A stretch of 63,951 bases of DNA, filler included, from Acidimicrobiia bacterium (GTDB taxonomy: Bacteria > Actinomycetota > Acidimicrobiia > Spongiisociales > CAZKJJ01), in assembly GCA_046759765.1 (NCBI GenBank). It is 6 parts of 6 records of this genome, joined end to end, with 100 filler letters (N's around TTAATTAATTAA, not from the genome) between each part and the next. Parts side by side here need not be neighbours in the genome. Positions count along the whole stretch, not along the records: positions 12,087 to 23,964 come from JBHICV010000066.1; 5 more parts are not named here. One strand, 5' to 3'. Under the pieces are notes generated by a model that saw nothing but the letters and a program-made list of their open reading frames with translations, ran no database searches and had not been told where the DNA came from. Numbering within the stretch: position 1 is the stretch's first letter; each line of letters begins with the position of its first letter. Of this stretch, positions 11,987-59,441 are shown one piece after another. The position numbers were made by a program, and so were the translations under genes.

Positions 11987-12086
11987 NNNNNNNNNNNNNN
12001 NNNNNNNNNNNNNNNNNNNNNNNNNNNNNNTTAATTAATTAANNNNNNNNNNNNNNNNNNNNNNNNNNNNNNNNNNNNNNNNNNNN
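11987..12086. other. Artificial contig linker
   Basis: 44 N + TTAATTAATTAA (stop in all six frames) + 44 N. Confidence 0.99.
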
Positions 12087-12135
12087 ACGCGTTCGAGTGT
12101 CACCCTTCTGCTGCATTCTCGCGCCGGTCATCGGC

Positions 12136-12176
12136 AAAAGAAGCGAGGGAGCCGGGCCGAGGTCCGACTCCCTCAC
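12136..12176 (-). terminator. Intrinsic terminator / stabilising hairpin after the SBP gene
   Basis: Minus strand GAGGGAGTCGG...CCGGCTCCCTC stem followed by GCTTCTTTT. Confidence 0.6.
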
Positions 12177-12183
12177 GTTTCTG

Positions 12184-13503
12184 TTACCACTCTGCCTTCG
12201 GGTACACGAGGTCGACCGTGCCTTCGAACTCGCCCACGGGGAACACGAACTCGAGATCTTCGTCCTGCCACTGCGTCAGGAGGTAGTCCCGATCGATGGG
12301 AAGCCCCCGGGAGTCCCAGTGGAAGTCGCCGAGTACGGTCTTGACCGGATCGCCGGCCGTCCGTCCCCTCAGCCAAGTGGCCATGGCGGCATTGTCGGTG
12401 CTGCCCGCGCCCCGGATCGCCTGCTCCATGCCCTGGCACACGGCGAACGGAATCGCCTCGTCCTCATCGGGCGGCCGACCGTGAACCGCTTCGAAGTCGG
12501 CAATGAAGTCCGAGTTGCTGTAGGGCTCTCCCGCCAGCTCACCCTGGAAGTTGACGAGGGGGTGCCAAACGGTGTGAATGGCAATGTGCTGGGTGGGATC
12601 CCCGAGCTCATTCAGGAACTCGATCTGCGCACCCTGGGACATGTATATGTAGGTCGGCTGATGGTCGACCTGCTGCAACGCCTGAACCAGCGAGATCGCT
12701 TCGTCGACGGAAGCCGTCGCGGCGAACACGGTCTCCGCCCCACTTCCCTTGATCGAGTTGGCGAAAGTCGTCCAGTCGGTGAACCCCACGGGCCACTGCT
12801 CGTCGAAGACGATCTCGATTCCTGCCTCCGCCAGGAATCCGGGCGAGAGGTCGGCGAGAACATCTCCGGTGGCTGGATCATTGACCGTCCCGCCTGCCAG
12901 CCCGTTCCGGATGGCAGCAGCGAAGAAGTCGTCGGCGTATACGACCGCGGCCGTCGCCGGGTAGTCCTCATCGGAGATGAGTCCCTGTTGGTTGTAGTAG
13001 TTCAGCGCGTTTACCGATGCGCTACCGATCCCCTCGGCCGGGCGAGCCTGGAAGTAGAAGAGGTGTGTGAAGCCGCGCTCCCAGATTCGCTGCGCACCTC
13101 CGGATGGAACCGGATACACCATGCCGTTCTGCTCGGCGATGGCCGAGGTGGGCGCCGTAATCAAGCTGGAGAAGGTCCCGAACAGAACGTCGGCCTCGGT
13201 CACGAATCGCTCGTACTGCGAGACCGCGATCTCGGTGTCGGACTGGTTGTCCTCAACCGCGAGCTGGAGCGGGCGACCAAGTACTCCACCCTTTTCATTG
13301 ACCAGGTCGACGCAGAGCTGATACCCATCCCGATGCTTGATCGCCGGGATGGAGAACTCCCCGGTCAGCGGAAGAGATGTGCCGATCACGATCGGCTCGC
13401 CGGTAGGGGCCCCTTCTGTGGTCGCGGTCGTATCCTCGCCGCAAGCGGCTGCGATCAAAGCCAACGCAAACAGCCAGATCACGGGTTTTCGCATAAATCT
13501 CAT
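12184..13503 (-). CDS. LivJ-type (branched-chain amino acid/aromatic family) ABC substrate-binding lipoprotein
   Basis: Lipobox LIAAAC, PIVIGTSLPLTG, VNEKGGVLGRPLQLAVEDNQSD; GAGGAG RBS before ATG 13503. Confidence 0.88.
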   Translation of the reverse strand: MRFMRKPVIWLFALALIAAACGEDTTATTEGAPTGEPIVIGTSLPLTGEFSIPAIKHRDGYQLCVDLVNEKGGVLGRPLQLAVEDNQSDTEIAVSQYERFVTEADVLFGTFSSLITAPTSAIAEQNGMVYPVPSGGAQRIWERGFTHLFYFQARPAEGIGSASVNALNYYNQQGLISDEDYPATAAVVYADDFFAAAIRNGLAGGTVNDPATGDVLADLSPGFLAEAGIEIVFDEQWPVGFTDWTTFANSIKGSGAETVFAATASVDEAISLVQALQQVDHQPTYIYMSQGAQIEFLNELGDPTQHIAIHTVWHPLVNFQGELAGEPYSNSDFIADFEAVHGRPPDEDEAIPFAVCQGMEQAIRGAGSTDNAAMATWLRGRTAGDPVKTVLGDFHWDSRGLPIDRDYLLTQWQDEDLEFVFPVGEFEGTVDLVYPKAEW

Positions 13504-13696
13504 TGTCAGCTCCTCACGCTCAATGGCCAATCGGAACCAGGTTTGCTGCAAACGATTGGGTCGGTGGCGAGTATATGAATGCTCGCCGAGGCGGGTCAAC
13601 AAGTTGCAGGTGCTCGGAGCTCGCCCCGGTCGCCGTCGATTACGGTCTGGTTATGCCGGATTCGATCTGTGCCGCAGGTGAAAGGCGAGAGCCTCG

Positions 13697-14749
13697 GTGA
13701 AGAAGGTCCGACTGGCATCGATCGGGCTAGGCGCTTGGGCGAAGGTGCTGGCCCGGGCGGCGCAACGCGGCGACGTGATCGAGTTGCGAAACTGTTTCAG
13801 TCGCTCCGAGGAGACCCGTCGGTCCTTCCAAGATGAGTTCGGGATCCCGAGGTCTGCGGCCACGCTGGACGAGCTGCTCGCCGATCCCGAGGTGGAAGGA
13901 GTCATCGTCTCAACCCCCAACGACTCCCATCGCGAGGTCATAACCGCCGCTCTTGACGCTGGGAAGGCGGTCTTCACGGAGAAGCCCGTTACCCATACCT
14001 TGGAGGACGCTTTTGCGGTCAAGCGGGCAGTCGAGGACAGCGACGTTGTCTTCTCGGTCGGACATTCGGCGAGGAGATTGTCAGGTCACCGCGTCATGAA
14101 GGAGTGGGTCGACACCGGACGGCTGGGGCAGGTGTCCCTTGCCGAGGCCAATTTCTCCAACCCCATCGGTCTCCAGCTCTCACCCCAGGCGTGGCGCTGG
14201 TATGAGGACAAGAGCCCGGGTGGCTCATTCATCCAGATGGGGGTGCATCACGCGGATACGCTCCAGTATCTGTTGGGTCGAGTGGTCCGGGTAAGCGCCC
14301 ACGCCCGAAGGCTGTATACCGAAGCCGAGATTCCCGATGCGGTGATGGCAATCTGCGAGTTCGAATCGGGCGGCCTCGGATACATCGGATGCGGCTGGGC
14401 CTCACCCGGTGTCTATCAGCTCCGTTTGCAGGGGACGGAAGCCAACCTGATGTACGACGTCGATCAGACTCGCTGGAGTAGATCCGATGAGATCGACGGA
14501 GCGAGCACGCTTGTCTCTCAGGTCCCGGAGCAGTCGGGACGAACGGAGATTCAGCTGTCCCCGACCGATATGTTCCGAGCCGAGCTGGAGGAGTTCGCCC
14601 TGGCGATCCGGGGAGAGGCCTCGATCGAGGTTGGGATCGACGATGCGATCCGGGCCCTGGCGGTGGTGCAAGCCGCCGTCGCGTCTTCCGCGCGAAATGG
14701 CGCCGCAATTGACATAGAGCCGATGCTCGCAGGAGAACCAGTCCCGTGA
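13697..14749 (+). CDS. Gfo/Idh/MocA family NAD(P)-dependent oxidoreductase
   Basis: IGLGAWA, STPNDSH, VFTEKP, GGSFIQMGVHHAD. Confidence 0.92.
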   Translation: MKKVRLASIGLGAWAKVLARAAQRGDVIELRNCFSRSEETRRSFQDEFGIPRSAATLDELLADPEVEGVIVSTPNDSHREVITAALDAGKAVFTEKPVTHTLEDAFAVKRAVEDSDVVFSVGHSARRLSGHRVMKEWVDTGRLGQVSLAEANFSNPIGLQLSPQAWRWYEDKSPGGSFIQMGVHHADTLQYLLGRVVRVSAHARRLYTEAEIPDAVMAICEFESGGLGYIGCGWASPGVYQLRLQGTEANLMYDVDQTRWSRSDEIDGASTLVSQVPEQSGRTEIQLSPTDMFRAELEEFALAIRGEASIEVGIDDAIRALAVVQAAVASSARNGAAIDIEPMLAGEPVP

Positions 14750-15597
14750 CCGCGTCGCCTCGCTTCTCGTTCAAGGTCTGGCCTCAAGACATTGATTGGG
14801 CTGAGCTCAAGGACGTATGGGTGGAGGAGGACACACACGACAGATACGACGGCGGCTGGCTCTTCGATCACTTCTACCCACCGCGCCCCGGCCAACGCGC
14901 GGCCCTTTTCGAGGCATGGACGCTCCTGGCCTCGCTGGCCGCAGTCACTGAGCGCCTTCGTCTGGGCGTAATGGTCTCGGCCAACACGTTTCGGCATCCC
15001 TCCCTCCTGGCCAAAATGGCCGCGACTGTGGACCAAGTGACGAATGGCCGCCTCGACATCGGGCTCGGCGCGGGCTGGCATGAAGAGGAGCACCGAGCTT
15101 TCGGCATCGAGTTGCCTGGTGCCGAGCAGCTCTGGCGGCGGCTCGACGAGGCCTGCGCGATCATCGATGGGCTGCTGACGCAAGAAGTGTTCTCCTTCGA
15201 CGGGGCTGACTTCCAACTGCACGAAGCGGAGCCGGGTCTCAAGCCGGTGCAAGGGCCGCGGCCGCCGATCGTCATTGGCGGCATCGGGCGCCGGCGAACG
15301 CTTCCGATCGTGGCCAAGTGGGCCGACCACTGGAATTACTTCGGACGCCAGATGACTCCGGAGGACCTCCTCAGCCGTCATGAGCTCCTGAAGAAATTCT
15401 GCACTGACGTTGGCCGCGATCCCGACGAGATCGATGTCTCGGTCCAGCTGCTCTACGCCGATGAACCTTCCGGGCTGGTCTCGGCAGCTGCGGACTATGT
15501 CGAAGCCGGGGCGGACGAGATCCTGGTTAGCTTTCGAACCCCGCTGGCTCCAGGAGCGGTCGAGACATGTGGGTCTGCCCTGGCGAGCCTTCGATGA
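14746..15597 (+). CDS. LLM-class (probably F420-dependent) oxidoreductase
   Basis: WLFDHFYP, EAWTLLASLAAVTERLRLG, RHPSLLAKMAATVDQVTNGRLDIGLGAGW, PPIVIGG. Confidence 0.9.
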   Translation: MTASPRFSFKVWPQDIDWAELKDVWVEEDTHDRYDGGWLFDHFYPPRPGQRAALFEAWTLLASLAAVTERLRLGVMVSANTFRHPSLLAKMAATVDQVTNGRLDIGLGAGWHEEEHRAFGIELPGAEQLWRRLDEACAIIDGLLTQEVFSFDGADFQLHEAEPGLKPVQGPRPPIVIGGIGRRRTLPIVAKWADHWNYFGRQMTPEDLLSRHELLKKFCTDVGRDPDEIDVSVQLLYADEPSGLVSAAADYVEAGADEILVSFRTPLAPGAVETCGSALASLR

Positions 15598-15607
15598 CGG
15601 GCATCTG

Positions 15608-16558
15608 ATGGCGGCTACCCAAGCGCGAGAGCACGGTCACGGGTCGCAAGGAGAAGGGTGGCTGACCGAACACTCAGTCACAACCGAATCCATTGCCGGT
15701 TCCACGGTTCATCTCATACACGTGGAGACGATGGACGGTCTGTACGCGCCTATCGGGCTCCGCAAACCGCCCGGGGAGGGTCCGTTCCCGATTGTCCTGC
15801 TGGCATCTGGTAACGGGGGCGGCGGGATGGCGTGGATTCGTGATGCACTTCTGAACAGCGGTTACATCATGGGCCGACTCCTCGGCGAGGGCTACGCGTG
15901 CGCCTGGCTTCGTTATCGATCCGAAGTGGAGCTCGGATACCACCTGGGAGGAAAGCTCGTACGAGACACCCGACAGGGCCGTGACCTTTTCAACCGGTCA
16001 CCTCTCGAGTACGAGGACGAGATCGCAATCATCGAGTTCGTCAAGACCCTCTCATTTGTCGACCCCGACCGGGTGGCACTCATCGGCATGAGCCACGGAG
16101 GGGAGATGGTGCTGAAGATCACGTCGGAGTATCACGGCGCCGCCGTCGCTGTCGCCAGTGAACCGGCGGCCCACGAGTTCCTGGCCCTCGATCCCGACGA
16201 GACGGCCTTCGTGGACGCCAGCACCCAGCTCCGCAATATCGAGAGTATGCAGATGCGGCAGGTCGAAAAGGTCAGGGAGCGCATCGACACTGAAGTAGCG
16301 GCGGCACGCATAAGCAGCATTGAGACACCGCTCCTGGTCATGGGCCGCGAGTCGGACCATCTTCAGGGAATCTTTCGGGCGACCTACGAGCTGCTGGCGG
16401 AAGCGGGCAAGGACGTCGAGTGGGTCTCGTACGACCACACCCTGCACGGCTATGTCTTCCCGGTCCGCGGAGCCGACGGCGCCTACGAAGTGGATGAGAC
16501 GCAGACAACCGCTATCGAGGGTGTGCTCAGTTACCTCGCTCGGTATCTGACGGCCTAG
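15608..16558 (+). CDS. Alpha/beta hydrolase (S9/DLH-like fold)
   Basis: DPDRVALIGMSHGG nucleophile elbow, LVMGRESD, C-terminal HGY; start set at ATG 15608. Confidence 0.78.
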   Translation: MAATQAREHGHGSQGEGWLTEHSVTTESIAGSTVHLIHVETMDGLYAPIGLRKPPGEGPFPIVLLASGNGGGGMAWIRDALLNSGYIMGRLLGEGYACAWLRYRSEVELGYHLGGKLVRDTRQGRDLFNRSPLEYEDEIAIIEFVKTLSFVDPDRVALIGMSHGGEMVLKITSEYHGAAVAVASEPAAHEFLALDPDETAFVDASTQLRNIESMQMRQVEKVRERIDTEVAAARISSIETPLLVMGRESDHLQGIFRATYELLAEAGKDVEWVSYDHTLHGYVFPVRGADGAYEVDETQTTAIEGVLSYLARYLTA

Positions 16559-16561
16559 ATC

Positions 16562-17695
16562 TCACGACAGCTTCTCCCGAAGCCAGGCAAACGAGGCCGG
16601 AGCCCACTCGTCGAAGTACTTGAAGGCACAGTGTCCAGCGTCGGGGTAGACCCGCGCCTCGCGGCCGGTGACCGGGCCGTTCTCGAGCATGAAGTAGATG
16701 TTGCCGATGGGCGCGAGATGGTCGAGCTTGCCGTTGATCATCAACAGCGGCTGGGTGATGTAGTCGAGGATCCCGAGCTCCGACAGGGCCCAGCGACGAA
16801 ACTTTGACCTCTCGGCCTCGGCCGTGGTGGGAGGGAACGAAGGGGGTCCGTCAGGTTCTCCGAACAGATAGGTAGAGCGACGGTTCTGGGCGGCCACGAA
16901 ATCCTCCAGCTCGTCGTCACCCATCACGTAGCCAAAGGGATGGCCCGCGATGGCGACGACGGCACGAACTGCGTCTGGATAGGTGCCGGCGAGCTGCATG
17001 ACGGAGTACCCGCCCCGGCTGATGCCGAATGCGCCGATACGGCCGGCATCGACCTCGGATCTGCCTGCCAGGTAGTCGATGGCTGCGATCCAGGCCTTCA
17101 CCGACTCCGGTTCGGGGGGAAACGGGTTCTCGCCGGTGCCGGGTCCGTCCATCACCAGCGACGCGAGTCCTTCGGAGAGCGCCATCTCACCTGCCCACCC
17201 GCGATCTTCCTTGAAGACATCCGCTCCGCACATGATGAGGACCGCCGGCGTCTGACCTAAAGCTCTGTGCGAAGCACGGAAATGTGCCCGGATCGTCTCG
17301 CTTTCACATGGAATCTCGACCACCTCGAGCGGCGGGTCGAGGTGGCGGCATGCCTTTCGGTACGCACGGGCACAGTCGGCGCTCACCTCCGCTTTGAGCG
17401 GGGTTATCTCACCCGGGAAGCGCCCGATCGCGTAGTAGGTCTTGGCCTGGAGGAACTCCCGGCGGGCACCCTCAGCGTCGCCCTCGGCTGCGAGCCGGTC
17501 TCCTTCGTTTTCGTGAAAGCTCCCACGCTCCCGCCACACCGGGACCCATATGTCTTGGGTCGTTCCGTCCAGCCGGGAAACAGTCGCCTTGAGCTCGTCG
17601 AGATCGTCGATCATCGAGAGCCACCGGCGGTAGAAGCCACCGTGCGCCACGACGAAGGGGTCCTCGCTGGGCGCGAACCCAAGTTCGATCATCAA
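16562..17695 (-). CDS. Alpha/beta hydrolase of the FrsA / 2,6-dihydroxypseudooxynicotine hydrolase / Ayg1 group
   Basis: Helical N-domain with AKTYYAIGRFP, GADVFKED, DGPGTGE, GISRGG, NGKLD, AGHCA. Confidence 0.8.
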   Translation of the reverse strand: MMIELGFAPSEDPFVVAHGGFYRRWLSMIDDLDELKATVSRLDGTTQDIWVPVWRERGSFHENEGDRLAAEGDAEGARREFLQAKTYYAIGRFPGEITPLKAEVSADCARAYRKACRHLDPPLEVVEIPCESETIRAHFRASHRALGQTPAVLIMCGADVFKEDRGWAGEMALSEGLASLVMDGPGTGENPFPPEPESVKAWIAAIDYLAGRSEVDAGRIGAFGISRGGYSVMQLAGTYPDAVRAVVAIAGHPFGYVMGDDELEDFVAAQNRRSTYLFGEPDGPPSFPPTTAEAERSKFRRWALSELGILDYITQPLLMINGKLDHLAPIGNIYFMLENGPVTGREARVYPDAGHCAFKYFDEWAPASFAWLREKLS

Positions 17696-17840
17696 ATCCG
17701 GGCTCCCTAGTCCGTTCGCTCCGATCCCGTTGACACCCGCCGCAGGCGGTGTTTATGTTATCGCCGCGGCGCGGTACCGAACGGCGGGCTATTCTGCAAT
17801 GGATTGTGCTCACCTGAATCTGGACCGAGGAGGAGGGCCG

Positions 17841-19607
17841 ATGTTCACTACTAACAGTGGAGCTAGTCGATGGCGCCTGATCTGGGTGATGGCGGCGGTA
17901 CTGGCACTATTCGCGGCTGCGTGCACAACCGAAGAGGAGCCCCCGGGCGTCGCCCCGACCCCTGCTGCAACGACTGCCCCGCCGGCGGAAACGGCACCAC
18001 CGACCGAAGAACCGCCGACGGAGGAACCACCCTCCGACGTGAACAATCCGGGAGTCCTCGTTCACGCGGCCGACGATGAACCCACGACTCTCGACCCGGC
18101 CCAGGTGGAGCCAGGGGAGGGCGGGGAGACCGTCATTCTTCAGGTGTATGAAAGGCTTCTCGAGATCTCCGCAACCGGCCCGGAACTGGTTCCGGCGTTG
18201 GCTACCGAAGTGCCAAGCACCGAAAACGGACTGATCTCGGCCGACGGGTTGACGTACACCTTCCCGATCAGAGAAGGAGTGGTGTTTCACGACGGCTCAC
18301 CCCTGACTGCGGACGACGTCAAGTTCTCTTGGGACCGAGTCATGACGATGGATCTTCCCGAAGGAGCGGCGAGCGTGCTGACCGACATCGTGGCCGAGAC
18401 CCGCGTAGTCGATGCCTCCACGTTCGAAGTCACGCTCCTGGAGACGAGCGCCAGCTTCCTCAACGGAGCCGTCGTCGCCATGGTGTCTTCCATCGTCAGC
18501 CAGGAAGCAGTCGAAGCCAACGGAGGCGTGACCGCGGGCGAGCCGAATGAGTTCATGGCCACGAACATGGTCGGAACCGGTCCGTACAAGTTCAACGCCT
18601 GGAACCGCAACGAGAACCTGATTCTCGACATCAACGACACCTACTGGGGCACTCCGGCCAACCTGGCTGTTCGCATCGAGATCGGTTCCGACCCGGATGT
18701 GCGCGTGCTGGGGCTACGGGCGGGCGACTTCGATACGATCGAGACGGACCCTTCGTTCATCGCCGACATTGAAGGTGCCGAAGGCGTCGCGATCTTCAGC
18801 GGAGGGCTCCTCCTGGAGCCGATCCACATCGGTTTCAACCTCAACATTCCTGAAGGAGTCCTGCCCCCCGAGGACACGATCGCCACCGATTTCTTCCACG
18901 ATCCGAGGGTTCGTCAGGCGTTCAATTACGCCTTCGACTACTCGGCGTTCCTCCTCGGACCGCTGGCTGGTTTCGGTGACTTCAACCCTCATTACATTCC
19001 CATTGGGATCTTTGGGTATGACCCCACCGCTCCGGTGTACGCCGAGCAGGATCTAGCGAAAGCGGAGGAGTTGTTCCGGGCGGCTGGATATTGGGATGAA
19101 GGCTTCACGGTATCCGTGATCACAGAAGAGCAGAACCTGTTCGCGGACGCGGCTCTCGTCCTCAAGGACTCGATGGCGGAACTGAACCCGAGCTTCGTTA
19201 TCAACGTTCTCGCGGTTGCCGAAGCGGTGTTCGACGATGCTCACGCCCAGAACCCGGTCGAGTACGCGATGTGGGTCAAGAACGCCGACCCGTTCGCGGA
19301 TCCCCACCCGTATCTGCAGTCGTATCAGCATCCGGACGGCGAGTGGGGTGAGGTGCACGGATTCGCCAACGGGTATCAGGACCCGGCGAAGATCGCCGAG
19401 CTGATCGACGCCGGCGCAGTGGAGCTCGACGCGGCCCGCAGAGCCGAGATCTACGCGGAGCTACAGCCACTGCTGTTCGAGGACCCGATGTGGCTGATCG
19501 CCGCTCAGGAGGGTGTGCTGATGGCGTACCGCGACTGGCTGGATGGGTTCGTGATGCAGCCGTTGTGGCCCCGACCGAGCTTGAAGTTCCAGTTCTTCGA
19601 CAAGTAA
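17841..19607 (+). CDS. Dpp/Opp family 5 ABC substrate-binding lipoprotein
   Basis: Lipobox LFAAAC, P/T/E linker, PTTLDPA, YTFPIREGVVFHDGSPLTADDVKFS, GTGPYK; GAGGAGG RBS. Confidence 0.93.
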   Translation: MFTTNSGASRWRLIWVMAAVLALFAAACTTEEEPPGVAPTPAATTAPPAETAPPTEEPPTEEPPSDVNNPGVLVHAADDEPTTLDPAQVEPGEGGETVILQVYERLLEISATGPELVPALATEVPSTENGLISADGLTYTFPIREGVVFHDGSPLTADDVKFSWDRVMTMDLPEGAASVLTDIVAETRVVDASTFEVTLLETSASFLNGAVVAMVSSIVSQEAVEANGGVTAGEPNEFMATNMVGTGPYKFNAWNRNENLILDINDTYWGTPANLAVRIEIGSDPDVRVLGLRAGDFDTIETDPSFIADIEGAEGVAIFSGGLLLEPIHIGFNLNIPEGVLPPEDTIATDFFHDPRVRQAFNYAFDYSAFLLGPLAGFGDFNPHYIPIGIFGYDPTAPVYAEQDLAKAEELFRAAGYWDEGFTVSVITEEQNLFADAALVLKDSMAELNPSFVINVLAVAEAVFDDAHAQNPVEYAMWVKNADPFADPHPYLQSYQHPDGEWGEVHGFANGYQDPAKIAELIDAGAVELDAARRAEIYAELQPLLFEDPMWLIAAQEGVLMAYRDWLDGFVMQPLWPRPSLKFQFFDK

Positions 19608-19610
19608 AGG

Positions 19611-19680
19611 CGCGCCGGGCCAGACACACGCTCTGCCCCGGCGCGGCAAGGGAGGGCACCGCTGTGCCTGACCGCGCCGG
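19611..19680 (+). promoter_or_regulatory. Intercistronic alternative hairpins between SBP and permease
   Basis: CGCGCCGGG(19611-19)/CCCGGCGCG(19637-45) competes with CCGGCGCGG(19638-46)/CCGCGCCGG(19672-80). Confidence 0.45.
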
Positions 19681-19693
19681 ATAACCTCTCCTT

Positions 19694-20707
19694 ATGCAGG
19701 TCCGCGACTATGTCCTGAGGCGACTGATCTCCCTACCGCTGCTCATCATCGGGACCTCGATCGTGGTATTTGCGCTGACGAGGGTGGGCGGCTCACCGAT
19801 CGGGATCTACCTGTCCCACGAGATGACCCCTGACGAGGTGGCCGAACTCGAGGCACGGTTTCATCTCGACGAGCCGCTACCGGTCCAGTACTTCTACTGG
19901 GCCTCAGGCGTTCTGAGGGGTGACCTCGGCTGGTCGGGAGTAGCGGCGGCGCCGGTCACGGAGGTCTTTCCGGACAAGCTGGCAGCCACGATGGAGCTGG
20001 CGGTGGCCGCCGGACTGGTTGCCGTCGTCCTGGGAGTCGTGCTCGGCACCTATGCAGGCGCTCGACGGAACCGCCTGCCGGACCACGTAACGCGAGTCGT
20101 CTCCATCAGTGGCGCGAGCATGCCGCTCTTCTGGTTCGCCATTCTCCTGTTGATCGTTTTCTGGGTTTATCTGGGTTGGTTCCCGATCGGAAGGAGCGAC
20201 CCGGACGTCTGGGCTTCGATTGCCCATCCCACCGGCCTGTACACCGTGGACTCAATCCTGGCCGGGAGTTTCGACGCTTTCAAAGACGCGCTCTGGCACC
20301 TGGTGCTGCCGGCATTTGCTCTCGGCTACGGAGCCACCGCCATCATCGCCCGGATGTTGCGATCGTCCCTCGTGGAAGAGATGCAAGAGGACTACGTCGA
20401 CTCGGCCCGTGCCAAAGGACTGCCCGAGCGACTGGTGCTGAGACGGCATGCGAGGCGCAACGCGCTCATCCCGACCGTTACGGTCATTGGGCTCACCTTT
20501 GGATTCCTGCTTCAGGGCACGGTGGTCGCCGAGATCATCTTCCGCTGGCCGGGCTTGGGCCGATGGATGGCCGACTCCGTTCTGCGGGGGGACCAAGCAA
20601 CGATCATGACCTACGTGATGTTTACGAGCGTCTTGTTCTTGGTCGTCAACCTCGTGGTGGACGTCATTTACGCCTATCTAGACCGGCGCGTCGAGCTGGG
20701 GGTCTGA
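19694..20707 (+). CDS. dppB: Dpp/Opp ABC permease (DppB-like)
   Basis: LDEPLPVQY, GDLGWS, EAA loop DYVDSARAKGLPERLVLRRHARRNAL, WPGLG. Confidence 0.92.
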   Translation: MQVRDYVLRRLISLPLLIIGTSIVVFALTRVGGSPIGIYLSHEMTPDEVAELEARFHLDEPLPVQYFYWASGVLRGDLGWSGVAAAPVTEVFPDKLAATMELAVAAGLVAVVLGVVLGTYAGARRNRLPDHVTRVVSISGASMPLFWFAILLLIVFWVYLGWFPIGRSDPDVWASIAHPTGLYTVDSILAGSFDAFKDALWHLVLPAFALGYGATAIIARMLRSSLVEEMQEDYVDSARAKGLPERLVLRRHARRNALIPTVTVIGLTFGFLLQGTVVAEIIFRWPGLGRWMADSVLRGDQATIMTYVMFTSVLFLVVNLVVDVIYAYLDRRVELGV

Positions 20708-21636
20708 TGGTCGAAGCAGCCGAGCAGCGTCCTGCGATAGCGCCGCCATCGGAGAGCGCATGGAAGGTGCGCACGCAGCGGCTCTGGGAGCTGACGTCCG
20801 GCGCGCTCTCCAACCCGACCACCGTCGCGGGTTTCCTCATCGTGACGCTGATGATCGCGATGGCCGTTTTCGCTCCCCTTCTCACGGAGCCCAATGTCCC
20901 TGATCCATACCAGATGCCTCGTGACTGGGAGATGCCCCGGGCCCCGCCCGGCACACCTGGCCACCCTTTGGGCACCACCAACAACGGCGGAGACGTGCTC
21001 TACGGCGTCATCTGGGGAGCGAGAACGTCCCTGCGTCTGTCGCTCATCGTGGTCGGACTCACGGTGGCGATTGGTGTGACGGTCGGCAGCATCGCCGGCT
21101 ACCGAGGGGGACGAATCGATGAGTTCTTGATGCGCATAGTCGATGTGTTCCTGTCGATACCGGAGCTGATATTCGCCCTGGCCATCGCCGCGGTCCTCGG
21201 TCCTTCCTTCCGCAACATCGTCCTCGCACTCGCCATCGTCTTCTGGGTCAAGTACGCGCGTATTACTCGCGCTCAGATCATCCGTGTGAAACAGAACGAA
21301 TACGTCGATGCAGCGCGCGCAATCGGCGACTCGGAGCTACGCATTTACATGAAGGACGTGCTACCCAACTCGGTCACACCCGTTGTCGTACAGGCCACGT
21401 TGGACATGGGCAATATCGTGTTGATCGGGGCGACTCTCGCCTTCATCGGCCTATCCGAAGCGGGTATCGCCGAATGGGGAGTGCTCGTATCGGAGGGTCA
21501 AGCCGGAATCTCGTCGGGTCGATGGTGGGCATCGACCTTCCCCGGTTTGATGGTTTTCCTGTGGGCCTTGGCGTTCAATCTCCTCGGAGACGGTCTCCGT
21601 GACGTCTTGGATCCTCGCACCGAGATGGCACGGTGA
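20707..21636 (+). CDS. dppC: Dpp/Opp ABC permease (DppC-like)
   Basis: HPLGTTNNGGDV, GARTSL, EYVDAARAIG, FNLLGDGLRDVLDPR; ATG overlaps dppB stop. Confidence 0.92.
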   Translation: MVEAAEQRPAIAPPSESAWKVRTQRLWELTSGALSNPTTVAGFLIVTLMIAMAVFAPLLTEPNVPDPYQMPRDWEMPRAPPGTPGHPLGTTNNGGDVLYGVIWGARTSLRLSLIVVGLTVAIGVTVGSIAGYRGGRIDEFLMRIVDVFLSIPELIFALAIAAVLGPSFRNIVLALAIVFWVKYARITRAQIIRVKQNEYVDAARAIGDSELRIYMKDVLPNSVTPVVVQATLDMGNIVLIGATLAFIGLSEAGIAEWGVLVSEGQAGISSGRWWASTFPGLMVFLWALAFNLLGDGLRDVLDPRTEMAR

Positions 21637-22964
21637 CCCTGACCAACACGGGAGCGGCGACCACCGAAACTCGGCCCCCGGCCGCTATCGCCTCCGTCGA
21701 CGGTCTGAAGGTGCACTTTGAGTCCAAGCGAGGCATCGTGTACGCGGTCGATGGTGTTTCGTTCGACATTCTTGACGGCGAGACGGTCGGCCTGGTCGGT
21801 GAGACGGGCTGTGGCAAGACGGTCACGGCCAGATCTTTTCTCCGGCTCGTGCCGATGCCGCCCGGTATTCAGGTCGGCGGCTCGATCTTCTTCAGGCCGC
21901 GCCGGCCATGCGACCAGTGCGACGGAAGTGGTTGCGAGCACTGCGACCAGAGCGGCAGACTTCCGGCGACCTGTCCGCACTGCAACGGCGAGGGGTGCGG
22001 AAATTGCGATGGCACCGGGATCGAGAGCATCGATCTCTTGACTATCTCTGAATCGCGGATGAGAGAGATCCGCGGAGATCGCATCGCCATGATCTTTCAG
22101 GATCCCGGCAAAGCGTTGAATCCGGCTCTGACAGTCAGAGACCAGATTGCAGAGGTCCTCTATCACCATCGCTCAGGCGACCTCCTCGAGGCATCGGGGA
22201 TCGGTGCAGAAGAGTCAGGCCTCGAAATGGCTCTTCTCCGGCGGCGAGCCACCCAGCGCGACCGGCGCCTCGAACGTTTGCTCATGTCGCTACCGCCCAT
22301 TCGGTCCCGCCGTGACCGGCTGACTCGAGCTACGGACACGATGATCGCAGCTTCTCTGGCAGAGACGCAGATCCCTAACCCGGCCAAGATCATGCAGCGC
22401 TACCCCCATGAGCTGTCCGGGGGAATGAAACAGCGAGTCATGATCGCTCAGGCCCTCGCCTGTGATCCCGACCTCCTCATTGCCGACGAACCCACCACCG
22501 CCCTCGACGTGACCGTGCAGGCTCGGATCCTGGAGTTGGTCAAGGGACTACAGGAGCGACACCGGACCGCGGTCCTGTACATCAGCCATGACCTCTCCGT
22601 CGTAAGACAGGTGAGCGATCGCGTGGCGGTCATGTACGCAGGGCGAATCGTCGAAGTGGGACTGACCGGGGACATCTTCCGGCAGCCACTGCACCCCTAT
22701 ACGCAGGGACTGCTGACCGCAGTCCCTTCCCGGGTTCACGAGCGGGGTCGGCTGACAGCTATCGAGGGAACGGTGCCCGAGCTCGTGGAGCCACCCCCGT
22801 CTTGCCGTTTCACGGGTCGGTGTCCCTACGAGGCTGAGGTGTGTGGTAGCTCCGATCCGGATCTCCGGACGGCCGCCGAAAGGCATACGGTGGCGTGCTT
22901 CATATACCACCCACCGCCCAGTTCCGGCCATCGCCGGCCTTCCTTTGCCGAAAGGACGCGATGA
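21633..22964 (+). CDS. dppD: Dpp/Opp ABC ATPase (DppD-like) with Cys-rich insertion
   Basis: [39 protein letters not shown]-terminal CRF..RCP...C...C; insert of four CxxCxxxG at 21909-22019. Confidence 0.92.
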
Positions 22965-23964
22965 CCGCAACTACAGAGGCCGCCGATCGAGCCGAACCTG
23001 TGGCGGCAAACGAGTACGTCGTAGCAATCAACGGACTGGCGAAGCACTTTCCGATCCGGGAAGGAGCTCTCCAAAGGGTGGCAGGACAGGTTCGTGCCGT
23101 TGACGGCGTCAGCTTCGACATCAAGCGGGGCGAGACCGTGGGGCTGGTCGGGGAGAGTGGTTGTGGCAAGACGACGCTGGGACGCTGCGTCAGTGGCTTG
23201 ACTGAACCCACTGCCGGCGGTGTCTACTTCGACGTCTCGGCCCAGGAGCTCTCCCGGCTCGAGAACATCCTGGTCAGACCGGCTGAGGAGTGGACCGCGG
23301 ACATGAGAACGGATCTCGAGGAGTTCACTCGAAGCCATAGGGTCGACCGGCTCAAGGGGCCGGCGTGGCGCCGCTATCGGCGCAACTGTCAGATCGTGTT
23401 TCAGGACTCTTTCGCTTCTCTGAATCCCCGCCAGCTGGTCAAGAACATCGTGGGACGCCCGCTCCGAGTGCACAAGGAGGCTTCGGGTATTGAGCTAACT
23501 GAGCGCGTGGTGAGCCTGCTTGAGCAGGTAGGGCTCGGACGCCAGCATCTCTACCGTTACCCACATCAGTTCTCGGGTGGTCAAAGACAGAGAATCTCGA
23601 TCGCGCGGGCGTTAGCGCTCGATCCCGAGCTGGTGGTTCTGGACGAACCAACCAGCGCACTGGACGTGTCCGTGCAGGCGCAGATCCTCAACCTCCTCCA
23701 TGAACTTCAGCAGAGTCGAGGTCTCGCCTACCTATTCATCACCCACGATCTCCAGGTCGTTCGACACATGGCCGATCGGATCGTCGTCATGTACGTCGGC
23801 AAAGTGGTGGAAGCCGGCGATGCCGATGCTTTGTTCGAGCACCCCCGCCACCCGTATACGGACGCGCTGCTCGCTGCCAACCCCGACCTAGCGGAGGCAT
23901 CAGAAGCGGTGCCTAGGGCGCTGGAGGGGACGGTGCCTGACCCTGCTCGCCCGCCGCAGGGATG
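22961..23964 (+). CDS. dppF: Dpp/Opp ABC ATPase (DppF-like), 3'-truncated
   Basis: [36 protein letters not shown] overlaps dppD stop. Confidence 0.92.
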
Positions 23965-24064
23965 NNNNNNNNNNNNNNNNNNNNNNNNNNNNNNNNNNNN
24001 NNNNNNNNTTAATTAATTAANNNNNNNNNNNNNNNNNNNNNNNNNNNNNNNNNNNNNNNNNNNN
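23965..24064. other. Artificial contig linker
   Basis: N44-TTAATTAATTAA-N44. Confidence 0.99.
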
Positions 24065-35870: not shown

Positions 35871-35970
35871 NNNNNNNNNNNNNNNNNNNNNNNNNNNNNN
35901 NNNNNNNNNNNNNNTTAATTAATTAANNNNNNNNNNNNNNNNNNNNNNNNNNNNNNNNNNNNNNNNNNNN
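35871..35970. other. Artificial contig linker
   Basis: N44-TTAATTAATTAA-N44. Confidence 0.99.
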
Positions 35971-47651: not shown

Positions 47652-47751
47652 NNNNNNNNNNNNNNNNNNNNNNNNNNNNNNNNNNNNNNNNNNNNTTAAT
47701 TAATTAANNNNNNNNNNNNNNNNNNNNNNNNNNNNNNNNNNNNNNNNNNNN
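47652..47751. other. Artificial contig linker
   Basis: N44-TTAATTAATTAA-N44. Confidence 0.99.
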
Positions 47752-59341: not shown

Positions 59342-59441
59342 NNNNNNNNNNNNNNNNNNNNNNNNNNNNNNNNNNNNNNNNNNNNTTAATTAATTAANNN
59401 NNNNNNNNNNNNNNNNNNNNNNNNNNNNNNNNNNNNNNNNN
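59342..59441. other. Artificial contig linker
   Basis: N44-TTAATTAATTAA-N44. Confidence 0.99.

Follow-up and report, generated by a model that had tools for sequence, protein, structure and literature searches.

The window analysed here, the whole stretch of 63,951 nucleotides made up of six joined parts of the genome of an Acidimicrobiia bacterium (GCA_046759765.1, designated G000 below; 308 contigs, 2.73 Mb, 92% complete), contains a five-gene operon for an importer of the oligopeptide/dipeptide (Opp/Dpp) type. The operon lies at the end of the contig that occupies window positions 12087 to 23964 (JBHICV010000066.1, our C66) and encodes a solute-binding protein, permease B, permease C, ATPase D, and ATPase F. 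The subject of this analysis is a cysteine-rich insert in ATPase D, an OppD/DppD-type member of the ATP-binding cassette (ABC) ATPases, here called OppD. An earlier note had described this insert as DnaJ-like CxxCxGxG zinc-finger repeats and had proposed that it makes the importer metal- or redox-gated or serves as a docking module. The features of the gene are the following, with residue numbers referring to the OppD protein.

21633..22964, + strand: OppD/DppD-type ABC ATPase (P0001), 443 residues, host of the insert; ABC_tran 83.4 bits, oligo_HPY 67 bits
21798..21821, + strand: Walker A, GETGCGKT, residues 56-63; invariant in alignment A1
21888..22019, + strand: insertion 1, residues 86-129; gap in the alignment with 8j5q_D
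21909..21956, + strand: putative zinc-knuckle unit 1, residues 93-108, followed by the linker with invariant Arg109; Cys and Gly in 120/120
21972..22019, + strand: putative zinc-knuckle unit 2, residues 114-129; four Cys, Gly121, and Gly129 in 120/120, Gly119 at 0.99
22092..22106, + strand: Q-loop, IFQDP, residues 154-158 (Q156)
22173..22367, + strand: insertion 2, residues 181-245, helical and Arg-rich, in the helical subdomain; gap in the alignment with 8j5q_D, helices at 181-244 in the model
22413..22490, + strand: ABC signature LSGGM (residues 261-265) and Walker B LLIADE (residues 281-286)
22803..22898, + strand: C-terminal four-Cys motif, C391/C397/C404/C422, expected [4Fe-4S] site; invariant in alignment A1

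Translation placed the insert at residues 93 to 129, exactly window positions 21909 to 22019, and confirmed that its eight cysteines lie in frame between Walker A and the Q-loop. The ATPase motifs, which had been described as intact, could all be read (Walker A, Q156, LSGGM, Walker B, and H319, the H-switch) and are invariant in alignment A1. The protein scored 83.4 bits on PF00005 (cutoff 25) and 67 bits on PF08352 (cutoff 27.1); on the NCBIfam models it reached 281.7 bits for OppD against a cutoff of 575 and 276.5 bits for DppD against 541, and because both scores are below their cutoffs we treat it as a member of the broad family and not as an equivalog. The AlphaFold2 model of the whole protein had a mean predicted local distance difference test score (pLDDT) of 78.9 and a predicted template-modelling score of 0.80, and its top Foldseek match was E. 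coli OppD (8z21_C, E 1e-28, target-normalised template-modelling (TM) score 0.87). As the earlier note had also said, the usual C-terminal four-Cys motif is present, with Cys391, Cys397, Cys404, and Cys422 pairing one-to-one with cysteines of M. tuberculosis OppD in a phmmer alignment with 8j5q_D. The spacing of these residues, 6/7/18, is that of the [4Fe-4S] ligands C284/290/297/315 of E. coli DppD as given in the Fig 1F legend of PMC12136057, and a [4Fe-4S] site is expected here.

The same phmmer alignment paired query segments 21-85, 130-180, and 246-423 with M. tuberculosis OppD; since it breaks between residues 85 and 130, residues 86 to 129 constitute an insertion, to which about one residue corresponds in the solved protein. 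The sequence of canonical relatives here is G.V.F.GE.L, which bears out the view that the loop is normally short. Walker A and the Q-loop are 90 residues apart in the window OppD, as compared with a median of 45 for 291 nucleotide-binding domain (NBD) segments from 149 other representatives.

The eight cysteines of the insert are arranged in four CxxC knuckles, with knuckles 1, 3, and 4 of the window protein being strict CxxCxGxG and knuckle 2 CxxCxxxG. A word-indexed search listed 120 clusters of homologues, 62-100% identical and about 440 residues long, from JGI, ENA, NCBI, and Logan assemblies, several of them named Acidimicrobiia. Exactly 90 residues separate Walker A from the Q-loop in 120/120 clusters, and all of them have the eight insert cysteines (a pattern scan caught eight in 119/120, and the one that it missed, P0079, has them in the alignment). 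Because all eight cysteines are invariant in these 120 homologues, far beyond chance, the insert is not an assembly artefact; confinement to a single assembly and loss of the cysteines in homologues, two outcomes at the sequence level that the earlier note had named as fatal to its proposal, are both rejected.

In the 120 aligned sequences, with homologues at 62-74% identity, the eight cysteines, Gly98, Gly100, Gly108, Gly121, Gly129, and Arg109 were conserved at 100% and Gly119 at 99%. The other 22 positions of the insert had a mean entropy of 2.72 bits, as compared with 0.95 bits for the whole protein; 65% of the residues at these positions were A, S, T, D, G, or P and 12% were hydrophobic, and the net charge of the insert ranged from -6 to +2. 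With its non-ligand positions hypervariable, mostly small or polar, and so seldom hydrophobic, the insert offers no conserved binding surface. Across the family each of the two units has the consensus (CxxCxGxG)(CxxCxxxG), and successive knuckles are separated by 0, 5, and 0 residues; knuckles 1 and 3 are invariant CxxCxGxG, and knuckles 2 and 4 keep the last Gly only, Gly being found at position 106 in 32% and at position 127 in 39% of the aligned sequences. The arrangement has a 21-residue period (residues 93-113 and 114-134), with 42% identity between units and 14% outside the fixed Cys and Gly. Tandem Repeats Finder gave 0 rows for window positions 21850-22080, so that the duplication is invisible at the DNA level. 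A word-indexed search with residues 84-136 returned the protein itself only (1/2 candidates); it is uninformative, and silent on other hosts, since the insert is too variable for exact words to be shared in sufficient number.

The insert was modelled with good confidence both in place and alone. In the full protein its AlphaFold2 pLDDT was 82-90, and a 63-residue construct of residues 78-140, folded by itself from a 20-sequence alignment, had a mean pLDDT of 83.5, with 83-95 over its residues 11-60 and lower values at the ends. Both models had the same strands, at residues 86-87, 90-92, 109-111, 113, 130, and 133-134, predicting a three-stranded beta-meander in which the two connecting loops are the two 16-residue four-Cys stretches. 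In the models, strands 90-92 and 109-111 flank unit 1, which forms a closed loop, and because of the predicted strand pattern we read each four-Cys stretch as a loop closed at its base. This pattern, taken together with the natural variants described below, suggests sequential ligand pairing, of knuckles 1+2 and of knuckles 3+4, and the metal would be zinc, with two ions per insert. Comparison of the isolated 63-residue module with the PDB by Foldseek gave nothing at E <= 0.001 (the top row was DnaJA3, 2ctt, with E 0.7, TM 0.28, and root-mean-square deviation (rmsd) 11.4), and VIA-align of the module against 48,161 chains gave nothing at Z >= 2; for so small a domain such null searches indicate neither a new fold nor relatedness. 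The only tight local superpositions were on single knuckles of anti-TRAP (2zp9_C, 23 columns, rmsd 0.9) and PheRS. For residues 84-136 the ESM Atlas provided no usable feature match, and its structure rows (PheRS alpha, ArdA, and others, with TM of about 0.5 over about 35 residues) were not meaningful.

DnaJ and anti-TRAP bind zinc through the Gly-rich CxxCxGxG knuckle, and to this extent the DnaJ-like label was apt: like the DnaJ CR domain, anti-TRAP, and BSD2, the insert uses this knuckle, and it has four knuckles, eight cysteines, and presumably two zinc ions. The likeness does not reach the whole DnaJ CR domain. On PF00684, whose gathering cutoff is 32.7 bits, the insert scored 19.2 (E 0.0015, profile positions 1-26 of 65), whereas the two DnaJ proteins of G000, serving as positive controls, scored 51.4 and 62.9 bits. 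The DnaJ CR domain has an interleaved, V-shaped topology in which repeats 1+4 hold Zn1 and repeats 2+3 hold Zn2, with beta-hairpins as spacers; those hairpins are about 6-14 residues long, in contrast to the spacers of 0, 5, and 0 in the insert, which is predicted to form two sequential loops and has the TM of only 0.28 to DnaJA3 (2ctt) given above. The settings differ too, the insert lying within an ATPase and the DnaJ CR domain between the J-domain and DnaJ_C. Judged by the sub-cutoff Pfam score and the predicted topology, the insert is not a DnaJ CR domain, and its relation to the DnaJ zinc finger is at the level of the knuckle only. In a six-frame scan of G000 the tight unit C..C.G.GC..C...G was found in this gene only (1 frame of at least 80 residues). 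An origin from the genome's own DnaJ was considered and dropped, the scan giving no evidence of a donor and the DnaJ spacings being wider.

A Cys4 site cannot be assigned its metal from sequence alone, and the host family is one of Fe-S proteins, so the eight cysteines might ligate iron, in rubredoxin-like Fe(Cys)4 sites, or Fe-S clusters, which would add redox centres to the C-terminal [4Fe-4S]. We think this very unlikely: the spacing and the invariant Gly residues fit the zinc knuckles of DnaJ and anti-TRAP, a ferredoxin-type motif reads CxxCxxCxxxCP, unlike the spacing in the insert, and the 12-residue span of each Cys4 set would be too tight for a usually ligated cubane.

Orthologues with fewer units supplied natural variants of the insert. 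One of them, L106 (genome G649), has a single unit as the result of an exact 21-residue deletion, equal to one repeat period and spanning parts of both units, and P0249 is a second one-unit orthologue; P0122 has two units with a six-residue spacer separating knuckles 1 and 2. Two orthologues, L090 (genome G109, short GPEKT loop) and L002 (WSSETRAAGGGP), have no cysteines at the site and keep the rest of the protein. The zero-unit G109 orthologue lies in the same oppC-oppD-oppF gene cluster (L115), and the OppF encoded there (476 residues) falls in the same sequence cluster, c0. We placed these forms on a maximum-likelihood tree of 31 rows, computed by quick IQ-TREE with the insert columns removed and with four canonical outgroups. 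The subfamily formed a starred clade with a Shimodaira-Hasegawa-like approximate likelihood ratio test (SH-aLRT) value of 98. Two two-unit rows joined L106 in a starred clade (SH-aLRT 96), and L090 fell within a 12-row two-unit group (SH-aLRT 81). At the base, L002 was part of an open fork and P0249 had a long branch; the unit states require at least four changes on this tree. Judged from these placements, the insert appears to have been halved at least once, and it was probably lost completely once. Since one- and zero-unit orthologues nest among two-unit forms, the transporter seems to work without the module. The one-unit orthologues also show a pair of adjacent knuckles to be sufficient for a unit and favour the sequential 1+2, 3+4 ligation. 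The insert itself probably originated by duplication of a single four-Cys unit and was later halved or lost in some lineages.

We lean towards a structural reading, in which the insert is a double Zn(Cys)4 module that gives stiffness to a protruding hairpin and that the transport cycle can do without. In this model each of the two tandem 21-residue units would close its 16-residue loop (CxxCxGxG-CxxCxxxG) round one tetrahedral Zn(Cys)4 site; both loops would hang from the short three-stranded beta-meander, which would lengthen the normally tight hairpin of the antiparallel beta-subdomain; and the metal sites would rigidify a protrusion that is exposed to solvent and lacks a hydrophobic core. 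The module would then be an accessory decoration of one divergent subfamily of Opp/Dpp-type importers, outside the catalytic or coupling machinery. A structural metal site is argued for by the invariant ligands and turn Gly residues, the hypervariable polar surface, the confident self-contained fold, and the dispensability in close orthologues, and the insert would have no regulatory role. The earlier note was right in every point of its description; the metal or redox gating and the docking that it had drawn from that description found no support, given the hypervariable surface, the nested variants, and the lack of a recurrent partner or metal gene. Several points weigh against the structural reading. 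The fixed 90-residue length (120/120) and the invariant Arg109 represent more constraint than a neutral decoration needs; the nesting of L090 among two-unit forms has weak support (SH-aLRT 81); and gain and loss at the base of the tree are inseparable because of the long branch of P0249 and the open fork of L002. In addition, iron or an Fe-S cluster in place of zinc is chemically possible, and recognition by shape, backbone, or charge is possible too, being compatible with a hypervariable surface.

Eight invariant cysteines on the ATP-binding beta-subdomain could also form a thiol-zinc redox switch, in which oxidation would free the zinc, the hairpin would unfold, and the ATPase would be turned down jointly with the C-terminal [4Fe-4S]. 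Zn-thiolate switches are known in Actinomycetota, and zinc is released on oxidation in Hsp33, RsrA, and DnaJ. Redox sensitivity is already present in the family, since oxidants dissociate E. coli DppBCDF via the C-terminal cluster according to section 6 of PMC12136057, a further point in favour of a switch. Against it, orthologues with half a module or none persist in the same type of operon, the genes recurring nearby include no redox regulator and no member of a thiol system, and the sequence cannot tell a switch from a purely structural site; we judge the switch improbable. The allied proposal of a two-input redox- and metal-gated importer, with a zinc-thiolate sensor and the C-terminal [4Fe-4S] as inputs and with oxidation or zinc loss unfolding the hairpin and stopping ATP binding, seems to us unlikely as well. 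If a switch did exist, it would represent a new regulatory principle for ABC importers, acting from the cytoplasmic side; the structural reading, if true, would be a modest case of modular zinc-knuckle evolution.

The other genes of the operon are the following.

17730..19607, + strand: family-5 solute-binding protein; Pfam SBP_bac_5, E 3e-63; start codon uncertain
19694..20707, + strand: OppB/DppB-like permease, 337 residues; Pfam BPD_transp_1 and BPD_transp_1_N
20707..21636, + strand: OppC/DppC-like permease, 309 residues; Pfam BPD_transp_1 and OppC_N
22895..23964 (cut by the contig end), + strand: OppF/DppF-like partner ATPase; Pfam ABC_tran and oligo_HPY

Translation of oppC probably begins at an ATG, at 20707, where the gene overlaps the stop codon of oppB; relatives of the protein have 307-309 residues. 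The complete order of solute-binding protein, two permeases, D, and F was found in 3/14 related loci (L001, L107, and L109), and the other related loci gave partial orders resulting from cut contigs or imperfect greedy gene calls. Runs of N in the window lie at 11987-12086, 23965-24064, 35871-35970, 47652-47751, and 59342-59441 (paired 44-N runs); genes on the two sides of any such run are not genomic neighbours, and one of these joins cuts oppF at 23964.

The solute-binding protein bears on a further explanation, that the importer takes up metal chelates (nickel or metallophores), as NikABCDE and Cnt do, and that the insert is its cytoplasmic metal sensor, mediating trans-inhibition. The ATPase family also includes NikD, NikE, CntD, and CntF, and the solute-binding protein has weak matches to NikA and CntA; its top NCBIfam matches, GsiB, NikA, and DppA, were all far under their cutoffs. 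The scores were 80 against a cutoff of 393 for NikA, 59.5 against 800 for CntA, and 206 against 318.7 for NikD; the closest solved relatives of the solute-binding protein bind varied ligands; the recurrent neighbours of the operon are catabolic enzymes, not metal genes; and the invariant Cys4 and Gly geometry looks like that of permanently filled structural sites. Such a sensor is in our judgement highly improbable. A metal-chelate importer was rejected as the leading reading on the sub-cutoff Nik and Cnt scores, the ligands of the relatives of the solute-binding protein, and the catabolic neighbours.

Recurrent neighbours of the operon (window 13697-17695; loci L107-L112) included a Gfo/Idh/MocA oxidoreductase, a luciferase-like monooxygenase, and two FrsA/S9-like alpha/beta-hydrolases, and there were in addition a creatininase-family amidohydrolase, a D-2-hydroxyacid dehydrogenase, and a major facilitator superfamily transporter. 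Such a set points to a catabolic cluster whose substrate would contain an amide or an ester and would not be a plain peptide. In the neighbourhoods compared, no metal-homeostasis gene, metal or redox regulator, thiol-system gene, or extra partner gene recurred beside the operon, and a comparison of 15 neighbourhoods showed no gene specific to the insert-bearing operons.

The partner ATPase, OppF, has an insert of its own between Walker A and the Q-loop, helical and free of cysteine, which was read in the window and in the two-unit locus L085. Because OppD and OppF carry distinct inserts, both motor subunits of the subfamily are decorated, and differently. Full-length OppF relatives had 434-476 residues in 8/12 loci with a clean-looking gene call, the other 4/12 calls being greedy (496-563 residues); such relatives (for example L108:10880-12244) continue for about 100 residues past oligo_HPY, E. 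coli OppF having about 330 residues. These unusual inserts of OppF in the same operon, with which OppD might have co-evolved, are among the points that favour a docking or bracing role, in which the module would be a rigid protrusion contacting a regulator, an enzyme, the cytoplasmic face of OppB, the extra domains of OppF, or the membrane; the rigid, confidently folded character of the module, its strictly fixed length, and the invariant Arg109 are others. We assign this role only a small probability, since there is no conserved surface (22/37 positions are hypervariable, with 12% of their residues hydrophobic), no gene is specific to the insert-bearing operons in the 15 neighbourhoods, and the zero-unit locus L115 keeps its oppC-oppD-oppF cluster and its c0 OppF.

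Against the solved importers, E. coli OppBCDF (8z21), E. coli DppBCDF (8z1v-8z1z), M. tuberculosis OppABCD (8j5q), and Caldanaerobacter DppD (4fwi), the window OppD shares the fold, the motifs, the oligo_HPY region with its four cysteines, and the five-gene layout of the operon. It differs in having 44 residues at the hairpin where the solved OppD/DppD chains have about one, and the roughly 46 residues that insertion 2 adds are likewise missing from those chains. This second insertion, about 46 residues longer than the corresponding part of M. tuberculosis OppD, is kept in L090 and L002, which lack the Cys insert. No solved OppD/DppD structure contains the module, no Pfam or NCBIfam model covers it, and a full-text literature search found no paper describing an insert of the zinc or Cys-rich kind, whether in OppD/DppD or in any ABC importer ATPase.

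UvrA, an ABC-type ATPase with Cys4 zinc modules in its nucleotide-binding domains, is the nearest precedent for zinc knuckles in an ABC nucleotide-binding protein. It is not a transporter, however, and no sequence relation to the insert was found; its zinc modules lie elsewhere in the fold, where they anchor large inserted domains that bind DNA and UvrB. The UvrA of G000 (G000:C180:148-3042, L121) has two isolated CxxCxGxG knuckles, CEECSGIG and CENCRGDG. Small Cys4 zinc sites that stabilise a protrusion, vary between lineages, and leave the core function intact occur in the adenylate kinase LID and in the C+/C- ribosomal proteins, and by analogy this variability resembles the zero-, one-, and two-unit states of the insert, although the proteins and motifs differ. 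On this reading, the hairpin that follows the Walker A helix in an ABC importer ATPase can accommodate a whole metal module that folds on its own, and the known inserts of PepT-type ATPases are joined by a mini-domain that no annotation covers. Forms with zero, one, and two units occur in a single orthologous group and provide a natural deletion series with which to ask whether the module stabilises, regulates, or docks.

The distribution of the subfamily was surveyed with a 78-residue region as the query in the genome searches. In the phylum sample 9/401 genomes, G000 included, had a full-length match at E <= 1e-21, or 7 when the unpublished genomes G018 and G239 are left out. In the class sample 14/401 genomes matched at E <= 1e-12; the 13 besides G000 were all labelled 'same order', and there was no match in other orders of this sample. 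By family the matches in the class sample were 4/48 (f2), 0/12 (f3), 2/25 (f4), 4/9 (f5), 2/3 (f80), 0/5 (f81), 1/2 (f82), and 0/5 (f83), and even within genera presence was patchy (2/9 in g3 and 2/4 in g262), as expected of an accessory transporter. Among the best 150 matches of an exhaustive HMMER search at the 50%-cluster level, P0032, P0122, and P0249 were the full-length single-domain relatives and the rest were two-NBD fusions; only P0122 and P0249 had at least two CxxC between Walker A and the Q-loop in the 291 NBD segments from 149 other representatives. A search of genome contigs for related loci, for which the patterns chosen were generic, placed only 2 of the 80 loci listed (L001 and L002) in the subfamily.

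Two further observations concern the surroundings of the operon and its distant counterparts. At the start of the host contig a 493-residue open reading frame (window 12097-13578, + strand) has no Pfam match at E <= 0.001 and is overlapped by a 472-residue open reading frame on the opposite strand; either may be the gene. In a Thermoplasmatota metagenome-assembled genome (L004:3530-6200), OppD carries a Lys-rich, Cys-free insert at the same hairpin together with a very large insert in the helical subdomain, and the OppF of that locus has a long insert between its C-terminal Fe-S cysteines.

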